Shown here: piece by piece, positions 41,745 through 54,015 of the stretch | How positions within the stretch are numbered: position 1 is the first letter of the stretch | Layout of the letters: the number at the start of each line of letters is the position of its first letter | IMG/VR virus record: IMGVR_UViG_3300043447_000250 | Coordinates: 27,214-91,213 of that record | Strand: one strand, 5' to 3' | Source: a virus | Taxonomy: Duplodnaviria > Caudoviricetes | DNA length: 64,000 bases | Made by a program: the position numbers and the translations under genes | The notes under the pieces: generated by a model | The model's database searches: none | Told to the model about the DNA's origin: nothing | What the model saw: only the letters and a program-made list of their open reading frames with translations

Positions 41745-42165
41745 TATTGAGCATTTTCATAAGGCCATCGTAATGTCAAGTGGCCCCAAACCCCCTATAC
41801 CAAACATTCAAACCTTTGTCAAATAGCCAAACCATCTGCATTATATACCAAACATAAGTGTTTGTCAACTTTGATTTGAAACAAATCCTTGTGACAAATT
41901 TGAATGATTTTGTCGACATTTGTTTGATAATTAATTATTATTTAAATAAATTAAAAAGAAATAAATAAAAAACAATTTGTTTTATATATTGTTTTATATC
42001 AGGTATTGTTTGTTATATAGGGGATGGGGGATCAGATGATGTTTGATATCCCCTGGCAAAATGGCTAGGTACGGGGAAGAAAAAGCCTCTTCGTAATGTC
42101 TCTGGGATTATACCACCGACCACTGACATGCCTGGTACGGGGAAAAATTTTACGCCTTCGTAATC

Positions 42166-42363
42166 TTATTTTGGGGAAACAGAATCGGTCTTCGTAATAC
42201 CCTGGGGATCCTGATCATGGAGATTTTCGGGGGAAAATGAAAAGAACTTAGACAAACCCATAGTATGAGTAATAGATACAAAGCCATTCCACATAGCATT
42301 AGAGAATGCTTCATACTCTTTTGGTTGGTTCTTTGCATATCTAGCAAAGTGTCTAGGGCTCAT
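42166..42363 (-). CDS. hypothetical protein (leaderless, MSPRHFAR...)
   Basis: TGGTATAAT before the ATG at 42363. Confidence 0.55.
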   Translation of the reverse strand: MSPRHFARYAKNQPKEYEAFSNAMWNGFVSITHTMGLSKFFSFSPENLHDQDPQGITKTDSVSPK

Positions 42364-42579
42364 AAAATCATTATACCACCCAATAGGTTTGTCTGACAAA
42401 CAAGGTTTGATATGGTATAAGCCATGATTGGGGAAAATAATTGATCCTTCGTAATCTAGATCTGGGAAAAATATATTTGACATCGTAATGTTTGTTTGGT
42501 AAAATGTTTGGACATATTGGTTTGAAATGTCTAGGCACCTTCGGGGGCCCCAAGCCCAAACGGGCCCAGGGCTCACCTA

Positions 42580-42873
42580 CTATTCTGGTTTATTCTTTTT
42601 ATTGTATGCGTACTCTAAAACATCTAGAAGATTTGGATCACCAAGACCATCAACTTCTTCTTCAGAAATCTCTATCAAACTCAAAAACATTTTAAATGTT
42701 TCTTCTAACATTTCTTCACCAACAGGGCTTAGTTCTTTTACCAAACCTTCTGCAAGCATATATCCCATTGGACATCCAATGTCATTGTATTCCATGAACT
42801 GTTCAAAGTCTTCATCATTACGGAACTCAATCCATAACTGTCCTACGATCCCCGCCTTGTCTGCAAGATTCAT
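42580..42873 (-). CDS. hypothetical acidic protein
   Basis: RBS; F.EYNDIG.P motif. Confidence 0.7.
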   Translation of the reverse strand: MNLADKAGIVGQLWIEFRNDEDFEQFMEYNDIGCPMGYMLAEGLVKELSPVGEEMLEETFKMFLSLIEISEEEVDGLGDPNLLDVLEYAYNKKNKPE

Positions 42874-43095
42874 TTACTTCCCCTTCATCTCTTCCATAAG
42901 TTTATCATACTCTTCTTGTGCGGTCAAGGCTAAAACATCAAACCTCTTGAAAACGATTACTGGTAGATTTCTGACTAAATAATATCCAACCCTCTCAAGG
43001 TCAATAGAAAAATCTTCCGTCAATAGTTTTGCGAGTTGTTCTGCTTTCCTAGATTCTTTGTTGTGCGTTGGTGTTGCTGATAATCGTCTAGCCAT
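42874..43095 (-). CDS. hypothetical protein
   Basis: RBS aggag; TTGCCC-17-TACAAT promoter. Confidence 0.7.
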   Translation of the reverse strand: MARRLSATPTHNKESRKAEQLAKLLTEDFSIDLERVGYYLVRNLPVIVFKRFDVLALTAQEEYDKLMEEMKGK

Positions 43096-43187
43096 AGAAC
43101 TCCTCTCCTTTACATTGTATCAAATTTAATGGGTAGGGGCAAATCTGCAGGACTTAAACCCCTACCCGCATAGGATGACCCCTCGCC

Positions 43188-43547
43188 CTATGCTATCTCA
43201 ACTAAACCATATGCATTAATAAATGCTTCCCATGCTACGGGCACAGCACCGTTATCAAAATCTCTAACAGTCTTGTTAACAAAGTCAATGACTACTGACT
43301 GCTCTCCCAAATCAAAACTATCACCTGAGATAGAATAAATTCCAAAGCCGTGCTCTTCTAGAATGCTATCTTGAATAAGATAACTAATAATCATTCTGGT
43401 GCCGTACACTGAATCATTCCAGCGAGGCTTAGCATGGTGCATGGCCTTAGCAATGTCTACCTGCCATGAGTCTTGTCCCCAGTGACTGTATAGGACCACG
43501 GAAGAGTCAGTGCCATCCTTGAATACAAAATTGATTCTTGCTCCCAT
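43188..43547 (-). CDS. hypothetical protein
   Basis: MGAR...LYSHWG motif. Confidence 0.75.
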   Translation of the reverse strand: MGARINFVFKDGTDSSVVLYSHWGQDSWQVDIAKAMHHAKPRWNDSVYGTRMIISYLIQDSILEEHGFGIYSISGDSFDLGEQSVVIDFVNKTVRDFDNGAVPVAWEAFINAYGLVEIA

Positions 43548-43852
43548 TACTCTACATCCAATCTCTCTAGCGCTACAATACTAATGTCATATAGGATTTC
43601 TTTATATACTTCGTCCATCTCATCTGTATCAGTATTAGCCTCAAAACTCATATACTGACCTGTTGGCTCGTGTATTACTTCAATTGACCATCTAGGCATT
43701 CTGTCCCCCAAACTCTAGGGCATAGAGTTCTTCATTGGTCATGCAACTAGGGCAAGTGCCAAAGGGTTCATATCTATCGCAATAATTATACATATTCTCA
43801 AACTCAGTACCGCAATTAGCACAAACATATGGCTTGCTAGTTTTCTCAGTCA

Positions 43853-44323
43853 TTACTTTTCCAATTCTACTAGGGTCGTTTCTTCTTGTTCTAATTCTAG
43901 CATTTCTTCCTCAGTAATGCAAATCGGACAGCGTTCGTATTCGTAGTATCTTTCATTAATTAGTTGGCCATCATCTTCCATCTCTTCCCCGCAACCTTCG
44001 CAGTAGTACCAGTATGAAGAGACTTTAATCTGAATAACACACTCTTCCTCAGATGGGGCGGGGACCTCAGTAATGAAGTATCCTAATCTATTTATATAAT
44101 GGAAACCATTCCAGATGTAAGACCCACCATCATCGCCATCACCATAGGTCCAGATACAAAGTGGATTAGCAGACTTAACAAACTCATACTCATCGCCATA
44201 TGTCTCAAACATTATGCCTGAGCCTGTCTCATCTTGGAATGAGGCATTCTTATCTATATGATTAGTGATAGGCTTGTAAGTGGCTGTCCACTCTTCCATT
44301 GTCATTTCTTTGAAGTCGTTCAT
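43853..44323 (-). CDS. hypothetical protein with C-terminal Zn ribbon
   Basis: FETYG.E, G.H..NR.GYFITE, two CxxC; TTGACA-17-TAAAAT promoter. Confidence 0.75.
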   Translation of the reverse strand: MNDFKEMTMEEWTATYKPITNHIDKNASFQDETGSGIMFETYGDEYEFVKSANPLCIWTYGDGDDGGSYIWNGFHYINRLGYFITEVPAPSEEECVIQIKVSSYWYYCEGCGEEMEDDGQLINERYYEYERCPICITEEEMLELEQEETTLVELEK

Positions 44324-44524
44324 GTGGGGTACTTTCTACTAGGGTCCTATATACTATTTTACAGGTCAGAAATTAATTTGTCAACTTCATTCGGACTATA
44401 TCATAGGCATCAATACATCCAGCAAGATAGTCAAACATAGACCAGTCTTCTTCTTTTTCAGCCTCTGTTCGCATATCTGTGAGGGTAGCGATCTTTTCCT
44501 CCAGGAATAGTATTAATTCTCCCA

Positions 44525-52105: not shown

Positions 52106-52413
52106 TAGCAACCTCCTCAATATGGAACGCATCAAACTTAGCAATTTCGTTTTCTGCTAGTGGATAGAGTGATTTGTTTAGAGCAAAAACTGCTCTCATT
52201 TCATCTTCTGCCTCTACGACATAAGAAATCAACACATTATATTTTTTCATTACTTGTTACCTTTCTGATAAAGAAAACCCCATGCCTTACGGCACATTAA
52301 AATGCTTTCGCAATTGTCACAACAAATGATTTCGTTGTTAAGTTCTAGGTCATAGATATCTATGCTAGTTGTTTTATCTCCACATAGGGAGCGGACAGAT
52401 ACATAGTGGCTCA

Positions 52414-52593
52414 TTATTTAGCCTCTCTTTCATTAAGCATTTTCTGGATTGCACGAGCCTGCAAAATCCATGGGTTAGCGGCTACAATAGCCTCATGGCG
52501 CAAGGCGTTGCGCTTTTGTTGTTCAACGGCAAATGCCTTGAAGTATTCGTGCGTGTTCTTGTCACGCTGTTCTTGTGTTATTTCAATGTTCAT
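52414..52593 (-). CDS. hypothetical protein (MNIEITQEQRDK...), absent from the ORF track
   Basis: RBS gaaagg, 59 aa. Confidence 0.6.
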   Translation of the reverse strand: MNIEITQEQRDKNTHEYFKAFAVEQQKRNALRHEAIVAANPWILQARAIQKMLNEREAK

Positions 52594-52622
52594 TATTTAG
52601 AACCTTTCTTTAGTTAATTCTC

Positions 52623-52760
52623 TTAGAGGGTTTCTAGGTAGAAACCTGTGTTGCACTTTGGGCAAACACTTTCATACTGGCTTTCTTCGCCATAGACTGT
52701 TACAACTGGCTCAGTGCATGAATCGCACCAAACCTCTGTACCTTCATTAAATGAGTTCAT
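52623..52760 (-). CDS. small Zn-ribbon protein
   Basis: RBS aaggag; CDSC...CPKC. Confidence 0.65.
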   Translation of the reverse strand: MNSFNEGTEVWCDSCTEPVVTVYGEESQYESVCPKCNTGFYLETL

Positions 52761-53265
52761 CTTGAACTCCTTTCTTTGTTGATAACCTTTATCAACCTTG
52801 TATGTATACAAGTCTAGCAGGGGGGTCTGACAAATGCAGGGGTACGAATCGCCCAAAACGGACATTTAGAAAATAAATTTTTGTTATAAATAAGTATTTG
52901 ACTAGTCAGACTAAAAGATTATTCACGACACGCCGCAAGTGGACTTGACATGATGCGCCCCGAAGGTGCCTCGGGGCCCCATTTACGCTCAGGGCTTATC
53001 GTCAAAGATTTTTAGCAATTCCTCACATTGCTCATCAGTTAAATGTGTTATGTCAATCGCCTTTTGAAATAGATCCGTTATTTCATTCATTAGTTATCGC
53101 TCCAATGCATTTTGATGTGTTGAACCTGTTCATATAAATCAGCGGTAGGTTCAGCCATGCCATATGGATTTCCCTTATCTTCAATTAAATCAAGAAGATT
53201 AGATAAAGCGGTTTCAAGAAGGACGACCTCATCAATGTCGCCTAGCAATTCAATTTTTTTCATTA

Positions 53266-53442
53266 TTATTTTCCACCTTTCAAGTGACCAGAAATTCCCA
53301 ATGCATCACATGACACATGGAGCACTACGCTTTTAGGTAGTGAATTAGTTAGTGCAGAAATATACTTACGCACATCTGAGGGGGTATTTAGTGCAATAGC
53401 CTTAGTAGTGCCATTGAATGAAGTTAGTTTTAGACTTATCAT
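53266..53442 (-). CDS. hypothetical protein (paralog of 51443-51628), absent from the ORF track
   Basis: MISLKLTSFNGTTK...VSCDALGISGHLKG. Confidence 0.7.
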   Translation of the reverse strand: MISLKLTSFNGTTKAIALNTPSDVRKYISALTNSLPKSVVLHVSCDALGISGHLKGGK

Positions 53443-53695
53443 TTATTTTAGACCTTTCGTTTTTTTGATAATTCGCTTATTTCCACAAGCCTTGCAAATA
53501 AGATGGAAAGTTTCTTTAAACCATCTTTCGCTCCACAATAGAGAGCCACAATTAGGACAACCCATTACTTATTACCTACCATTCTAGTCATACGGTTAAA
53601 TTCTCTACGCCCATTTACAATAGTAGAGGGGCATACTACGCAGAAGATATCTTGAGGGTCTGCTATGTACCCACATTTTAAACATTGGCTAAACA

Positions 53696-53878
53696 TTAGT
53701 TAGACACCTTCCAATCTGACCAACCACTAAGGCGGTCTGAATCATAGTCCATATACCATGATTCAATATTCTGCTCACATGATTCACAGAATGTATAAGC
53801 CACATCATTGTGGAATGAGGTAGACTCTTTATGAGCCTTATGAGAAACGCATATTGCGTTAGTTGTTAGTGTAGTCAT
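53696..53878 (-). CDS. hypothetical protein
   Basis: RBS aaggtgg; FCESCEQNIE. Confidence 0.65.
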   Translation of the reverse strand: MTTLTTNAICVSHKAHKESTSFHNDVAYTFCESCEQNIESWYMDYDSDRLSGWSDWKVSN

Positions 53879-54015
53879 TGTATGACCACCTTTCTTTTAA
53901 ATAACCAAGATTATTTATCTTGATACATAGTATCCTAACACATACCACTGACAAATGAATGTGGACATTATGGAATAAAACGGACATATAGGATATGTGA
54001 TATAGACCACATTAG

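Follow-up and report, generated by a model that had tools for sequence, protein, structure and literature searches.

A PafBC-type promoter box in a gene block of freshwater actinophages: is it read by the host single-stranded DNA sensor?

Who reads the promoters of a phage gene block when these promoters look like those of a host DNA-damage regulon? The question is raised by a 64,000-nucleotide (nt) stretch of virus DNA (the window; bases 27214–91213 of the 91-kb record IMGVR_UViG_3300043447_000250, which is ~83% complete). At 42.1–54.0 kb the window carries nine minus-strand sites in which a TGTC box (TGTCAG in eight) stands at a fixed distance from a −10 element (TAnnnT). A first-pass annotation, made from the sequence alone, had likened these sites to the promoters of the actinobacterial regulator PafBC. 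To our knowledge, PafBC-type promoters are known solely as a host LexA-independent DNA-damage regulon, and our literature search found no description of them in any phage. The nearest item is a paper from 2025, reportedly on PafBC and resistance to mycobacteriophages.

TGTCAG sites in the block and in related contigs

A search of the window for TGTC-N12-TAnnnT recovered all nine annotated sites on the minus strand (Table 1). Eight of them read TGTCAG-N10-TAnnnT, the exception being the site at 50207 (TGTCCC), and the distance from the hexamer to TAnnnT was 10 nt in all nine, as invariant as the annotation had claimed. In the 91-kb record TGTCAG-N10-TAnnnT occurred nine times on the minus strand (eight of them inside 42.1–54.0 kb), with a single copy on the opposite strand. 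There were zero matches to the reversed control pattern, and the chance expectation, estimated from base composition, is ~0.1 per 12-kb single strand. A chance origin of the sites was rejected on these motif counts. When the whole record was scanned with a position weight matrix, the nine sites scored 22–43 bits and one weak extra site, at 45850, 13.9 bits; the top score in 20 shuffles was mostly <15 bits, with a maximum of 19.7. The matrix was trained on the same nine sites, so that the scan is informative solely on the lack of further copies, and no further strong copy was found in the record.

Eight sites are placed ahead of a ribosome-binding site (RBS) and a gene, as annotated, and lie 26–61 nt before the RBS and ATG of a small minus-strand gene. 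The site at 42107 has no gene directly downstream and leads into an AT-rich stretch. An extended −10 (TGn) was present in five of the nine sites.

The same class was recovered from related phages. With the DUF932 protein of the block as query we obtained at least 430 related IMG/VR contigs, and the conservation counts below use the best 80 of 430 (1.13 Mb). In these, the gene strand had 475 occurrences of TGTCAG-N10-TAnnnT and the opposite strand had 34. A spacing of 10 nt was found 475 times, and spacings of 9 and 11 nt three times each; this rigidity fits co-recognition of the box and the −10 by one complex. The family logo reads A-W-W-TGTCAG-t-S-S-...-T-G-n-TA-n-A-M-T-T, with an extended −10 (TGn, its T at 66% and its G at 78%) and an A at 75%, 7 nt past the −10, where the start point is expected. 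TGTCAG was among the top enriched strand-asymmetric hexamers in the intergenic DNA of the family. Three complete relatives again had their TGTCAG sites in one co-oriented cluster, with 8–10 sites each.

At the DUF932 promoter, compared over 62 distinct orthologues, TGTC was kept in 55. In the −10, all 62 had the same T, A and last T, and the 10-nt spacer was free to vary. Position 5 (A45/G10/T7) largely followed the R of the actinobacterial consensus. A −35-like hexamer (at least 4/6 matches to TTGACA) was seen in 15% of the family sites at 17 nt and in 21% at 18 nt, compared with ~3% at other offsets, and about two thirds of the sites had no recognisable −35. As judged from these alignments, the −35 at TGTCAG promoters appears optional rather than absent, and we take the nine sites to be genuine promoters, under selection, that form a class of their own.

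Lineage and host of the phage

The window has a G + C content of 37–42% (39% for the phage), and for this reason we place the phage outside the mycobacteriophages. By its gene content it is a WhiB-encoding siphovirus related to the Streptomyces Stanwilliamsviridae, its DnaE and large terminase being 54–55% identical to proteins of these phages. WhiB marks actinobacterial hosts (PMC10202952). Because the phage encodes WhiB, and its DnaE and large terminase are nearest to those of Streptomyces phages, the host is an actinobacterium. Mycobacterium smegmatis, in which the first-pass annotation had suggested reporter assays, is not the host, because the phage has a G + C content of 39% and its close relatives lie in freshwater assemblies.

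A narrower host assignment was sought with several markers. WhiB gave six matches in genome contigs, within metagenome-assembled genomes labelled Chitinophagaceae, Polynucleobacter, Saccharibacteria and others; most likely, these six are phage contigs mis-binned into bacterial genomes. The assemblies holding contigs with near-identical WhiB include Rimov (RE-) and Lake Mendota (ME2015), and thus point to freshwater and not to a host. The Hsp20 protein of the phage had no match at E ≤ 1e-22 in 401 Actinomycetota genomes. The rhodopsin marker for acI genomes gave zero matches anywhere, a search that had no positive control and is hence uninformative. By megablast against 50,697 phage records, the promoter block had no match.

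In the Streptomyces relatives the DUF932 homologue is found within the first 2.6 kb, with two matches per record, consistent with a location in the terminal repeat. Any "early" expression of the block, as proposed in the annotation, would follow solely from its homology with this terminal-repeat block.

Candidate readers of the box

The published PafBC motif, tGTCgg(N10)tA(N3)T, consists of a −26 element with a conserved GTC and a SigA −10; the GTC is recognized by the helix-turn-helix (HTH) of PafB, and the contact of PafC is with region 4 of sigma (PMC8635444). Cells contain PafBC constitutively, and single-stranded DNA (ssDNA) activates it (PMC10693628, PMC11804915). The consensus quoted in the first-pass annotation was correct according to PMC8635444, and the architecture it proposed was confirmed, the phage motif having the sequence of the published one and precisely its 10-nt spacing.

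We give a little better than even credence to host PafBC as the reader of the phage TGTCAG boxes. The host RNA polymerase–SigA holoenzyme, together with the host PafBC heterodimer, would then read the sites by sigma adaptation, each site offering a SigA-type −10 (TAnnnT, often with TGn) and a rigidly placed −26 element, (A/T)TGTCAG. The PafB HTH would bind the GTC triplet and PafC would bind sigma region 4, with ssDNA switching PafBC on. By this route the phage would make the expression of its small host-takeover-type genes, a block of 12 kb, conditional on ssDNA arising in the infected cell. Possible sources of ssDNA are processed genome ends, host-nuclease damage, or the replication–recombination system of the phage (RecA, Cas4-like nuclease and DnaE). 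PafBC as reader, the timing by ssDNA and the "early" expression are what we infer.

The annotation had offered a phage-encoded mimic as an alternative to the host sensor. No match to the WYL domain (PF13280) was found at E ≤ 1 in the record and in five complete relatives (104–117 kb), so that the mimic was not borne out. MotA and AsiA (PF09114, PF09010) gave no match at E ≤ 1 in the 91-kb record, no convincing sigma domain was found in it, and Pfam and PHROGs searches with ~70 open reading frames (ORFs) recognized no regulator in the block. With no WYL, MotA or AsiA in the phage, a host factor is the simpler reading.

On the host side, WYL genes were found in 344 of 401 sampled Actinomycetota genomes. 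Four low-GC genomes of 1.3–1.5 Mb (G024, G341, G363 and G244) had tandem WYL ORFs of ~330 amino acids (aa), like pafB–pafC, and three of them (G024, G341 and G363) carried TGTCG[CG]-N10-TAT[TA]AT ahead of recA. In G314, with two WYL matches, the recA site reads TGTCAG. A LexA-type box was found at recA instead in G179, which has WYL, and in G009, which does not; none of the three genomes without WYL examined had a PafBC-type box at recA. The box count in the candidate host-like genomes showed no excess over the control pattern, and a box site common to two of them was rejected as coding sequence.

The box was also found in cultured phages. We scanned the genomes of another 14 cultured actinophages (eight, then six). 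Of these, the Microbacterium phage Appa (MH153799.1, 68% GC) had two sites, TGTCGGTG-N8-TAnnnT, at 22950–22971 and 28459–28480, one 57 nt ahead of ssb and the other 157 nt ahead of recE/recT; ~0.007 such sites are expected by chance, as estimated from base composition. The Microbacterium phage Honeyfin (NC_073369.1) had two correctly oriented intergenic sites (33795–33816 and 36936–36957), one 30 nt ahead of an ERF recombinase gene and the second ahead of a small gene. The control pattern had zero matches in both genomes. No box enrichment was seen in Grayson, Hendrix, Rosebush, CaiB, Sicarius2 and MementoMori, and in six further cultured phages ssb had no intergenic gap upstream, which makes it uninformative for the box. 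Since the box is common to unrelated phages of different actinobacterial hosts and stands ahead of genes for ssDNA handling, a factor common to the hosts is a simpler explanation for it than one common to the phages. Rather less firmly, at somewhat under an even chance, we suggest that actinophages in general, from the abundant freshwater family to cultured Microbacterium phages, plug parts of their programmes into the ssDNA-activated PafBC of the host by sigma adaptation.

Several points weigh against PafBC as the reader. In 57 of the 401 sampled Actinomycetota genomes, many of them small, there was no WYL match. The spacing of the sites had been called too short for a normal −35/−10 pair in the annotation. 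This holds if TTGTCA is taken as an odd −35, a candidate we rejected since the spacer would measure 11 nt. However, four of the nine sites (47149, 47811, 48642 and 50207) also carry a TTGACA-like hexamer (4/6) just upstream at the normal spacing of 17–18 nt. Described PafBC promoters lack a −35, whereas about a third of the phage sites have a −35-like hexamer; with a −35 in a third and an extended −10 in most, the promoters might fire unaided. Dependence on ssDNA would fit poorly with immediate-early expression and better with a delayed or conditional one. The Streptomyces relatives infect hosts that carry PafBC, yet have ordinary promoters in the homologous block. Finally, most genes of the block have no family match, which leaves room for a phage-encoded activator of unrecognised fold.

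Such an activator is the strongest rival, and we consider it unlikely. A phage-encoded or virion-delivered protein of unrecognised fold would read TGTCAG and recruit or remodel host SigA, like MotA/AsiA of T4, with the likeness to the PafBC box arising by convergence or mimicry. It would suit the presence of two promoter classes, as in phages with a temporal cascade, where the consensus TTGACA-N17 promoters could express the factor first, and small ORFs without a family match abound in the block and on either side of it. The TGTCAG class is also missing from the Streptomyces relatives and so would be a lineage-specific invention. Against this stand the missing MotA-, AsiA-, WYL- and sigma-like genes in the phage record, and the presence of this box upstream of recombination genes in the unrelated cultured Microbacterium phages. 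An unrelated protein would moreover have had to match TGTCRG at the exact PafBC distance, for which we estimate odds of ~1 in 10^4.

It is more doubtful still that the sites are ordinary SigA promoters (extended −10, with or without −35), on which TGTCAG serves as the operator of a repressor or shut-off factor. The −35-like hexamers at 17–18 nt in about a third of the sites and the TGn in most agree with this reading, as do four of the 62 DUF932-promoter orthologues, which lack TGTC and keep a perfect TTGACA-N17 promoter. The site is asymmetric, however, its distance to the −10 is exact in 475 of 481 cases (9–11 nt), a fixity that a repressor does not need, and two thirds of the sites have no recognisable −35. 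Least probable, with only a slim chance, is another host factor acting at −26 or an alternative sigma factor: the WYL activator SiwR also activates from the −26 region in actinobacteria, but its conserved triplet is GGA within a 19-bp palindrome and not GTC (PMC10693628), and a TAnnnT/TGn −10 points to the housekeeping sigma.

If host PafBC is the reader, a globally abundant family of lake phages has placed an entire block of genes under the ssDNA alarm of its host, suggesting a new logic of phage timing and counter-defence. It would also provide hundreds of natural −26/−10 promoter variants for the study of sigma adaptation. On the wider reading for actinophages in general, phage genes would fire only upon ssDNA, from the onset of replication or from damage by host defence, and this would be the first case of a DNA-damage activator of the host serving a phage as a timing device, rather than a repressor such as LexA. 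With boxes ahead of ssb, recE/recT and the ERF gene in Microbacterium foliorum phages, the idea is testable in a laboratory host.

Features of the block and comparison with known systems

The coordinates of the nine sites (P1–P9), of the promoters of a second class and of the WhiB gene are collected in Table 1.

Table 1 Predicted promoters of both classes and the WhiB gene.
Feature	Position	Strand	Description
P1	42107..42129	-	ATGTCAGTG-N8-TATAAT, TGn; no gene directly after; followed by AT-rich stretch and DnaA-box cluster
P2	44833..44855	-	TTGTCAGTG-N8-TATACT; 26 nt before ATG of 93-aa gene 44525-44806
P3	47149..47178	-	TTGTCAGAC-N8-TATACT; −35-like hexamers TTGCAT/TTTGCA just upstream; 338-aa DUF932 gene 46100-47116
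P4	47811..47839	-	TTGTCAGTG-N8-TAGAAT; TTGAAT at 17 nt; 142-aa gene 47346-47774
P5	48642..48671	-	ATGTCAGTA-N8-TATACT, TGn; TTGGAA at 18 nt; 54-aa gene 48436-48600
P6	50207..50235	-	variant TTGTCCCCG-N8-TAAGAT; TTGAAT at 17 nt; 47-aa gene 50032-50175
P7	51690..51712	-	TTGTCAGAC-N8-TATACT, TGn; 61-aa gene 51443-51628
P8	52811..52833	-	TTGTCAGAC-N8-TAGACT, TGn; spacer identical to that of P7; 45-aa gene 52623-52760
P9	53932..53954	-	TTGTCAGTG-N8-TAGGAT, TGn; 60-aa gene 53696-53878
Second-class promoter	41840..41868	-	perfect TTGACA-N17-TATAAT
Second-class promoter	40156-40184	-	
Second-class promoter	44356-44384	-	
Second-class promoter	45862-45890	-	
Second-class promoter	42477-42505	+	
Second-class promoter	54092-54120	+	
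WhiB gene	25477..25758	+	93 aa; marker of an actinobacterial host

The second class has a consensus TTGACA and would run on unaided SigA. In the relatives, TTGACA-N17-TAnnnT and TTGACA-N18-TAnnnT occurred 193 and 118 times on the gene strand and 25 and 14 times on the other strand; other spacings gave mostly 7–31 occurrences on the gene strand. The perfect TTGACA-N17-TATAAT at 40184 ends 7 nt ahead of the ATG of a 59-aa ORF (39970–40149), a gap that would yield a leaderless mRNA. Leaderless transcripts are common in actinobacteria.

Two clusters of DnaA boxes (41626–41680 and 54016–54036) flank the promoter block. Perfect boxes, TTATCCACA, were found at 41626, 41660 and 41672 in the first cluster and at 54016 and 54028 in the second, and the whole window had six against ~0.8 expected. 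The first cluster adjoins a very AT-rich stretch of ~100 nt (~41930–42010) downstream of P1. The clusters may be a phage replication origin using the DnaA of the host.

Other repeated elements were also noted. Seven perfect TGTGA-N6-TCACA palindromes (CRP/GlxR-type), at 45250, 45932, 47236, 50266, 50679, 51740 and 54055, lie within the promoter block at a variable distance, ~64 to 137 nt, upstream of predicted starts; the one ahead of the DUF932 promoter is kept in relatives. ATGTCCG(T/A)TTT was found on the minus strand at 47193, 51843, 52847, 53969, 45463 and 57369, ~40 nt before several of the TGTCAG promoters, and shows strong conservation among orthologues; its reverse complement, AAATCGGACAT, stands upstream of the early promoters of the Streptomyces phage Samisti12. 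A strand-specific repeat, (A)TTACGAAG, often followed by TTTTYCCCCGTACC, occurs on the minus strand at 42087, 42154, 42188, 42445, 45891, 47208 and 50236. In the intergenic DNA of the family, TTACGA had 375 copies on the gene strand against 43 on the opposite one, and CCTGAG, CTGCTC and ACTGCT were strongly strand-biased words.

Elsewhere, the record encodes a tape-measure protein of 3468 aa, a PolIII-alpha DnaE, the DUF932 protein, a RecA-like recombinase (4492–5505), a Cas4-like nuclease, a CHAP endolysin, an APS kinase (cysC-like, 25951–26730) and Hsp20 (28695–29096), with a weak MazG match and 12 tRNAs. Lake phages encoding cysC, cysH and whiB are discussed in PMC10914622.

The closest comparison within the lineage is with the Streptomyces Stanwilliamsviridae (Samisti12, BillNye and Coruscant). 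Their terminal-repeat block is homologous, with small co-oriented genes including DUF932, and mostly has gaps of ~100–190 nt between genes, each holding a promoter-like site. These promoters are only of the type TAGACA/TTGACA-N17/18-TAGACT, and TGTC-N12-TAnnnT is not enriched. On this comparison, the TGTCAG class is an invention of the freshwater lineage.

The middle promoters of T4 combine a MotA box at −30 with a sigma70 −10. The bridging mechanism of MotA/AsiA sigma appropriation is cited in PMC8635444. As in T4, a candidate activator box would substitute for the −35, its distance to a housekeeping −10 being short and fixed, and the promoters with this box stand beside ordinary ones. Unlike T4, the lake phage had no MotA/AsiA homologues among the proteins searched, its box has another sequence and position, and the candidate reader is a host protein.

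The nearest known system is that of the PafBC (RecA-NDp) promoters of Mycobacterium and other actinobacteria, which act by sigma adaptation (PMC8635444, PMC11804915, PMC6789036). The phage sites differ from these in being located in a phage, in at least nine copies, and ahead of small genes without known function rather than repair genes. They also differ from the published motif in having mostly A at position 5 and an almost invariant G6. Common to both are the non-palindromic −26 GTC element (TGTCRG), the 10 nt to a SigA −10 (TAnnnT), the position ahead of genes and the actinobacterial setting.

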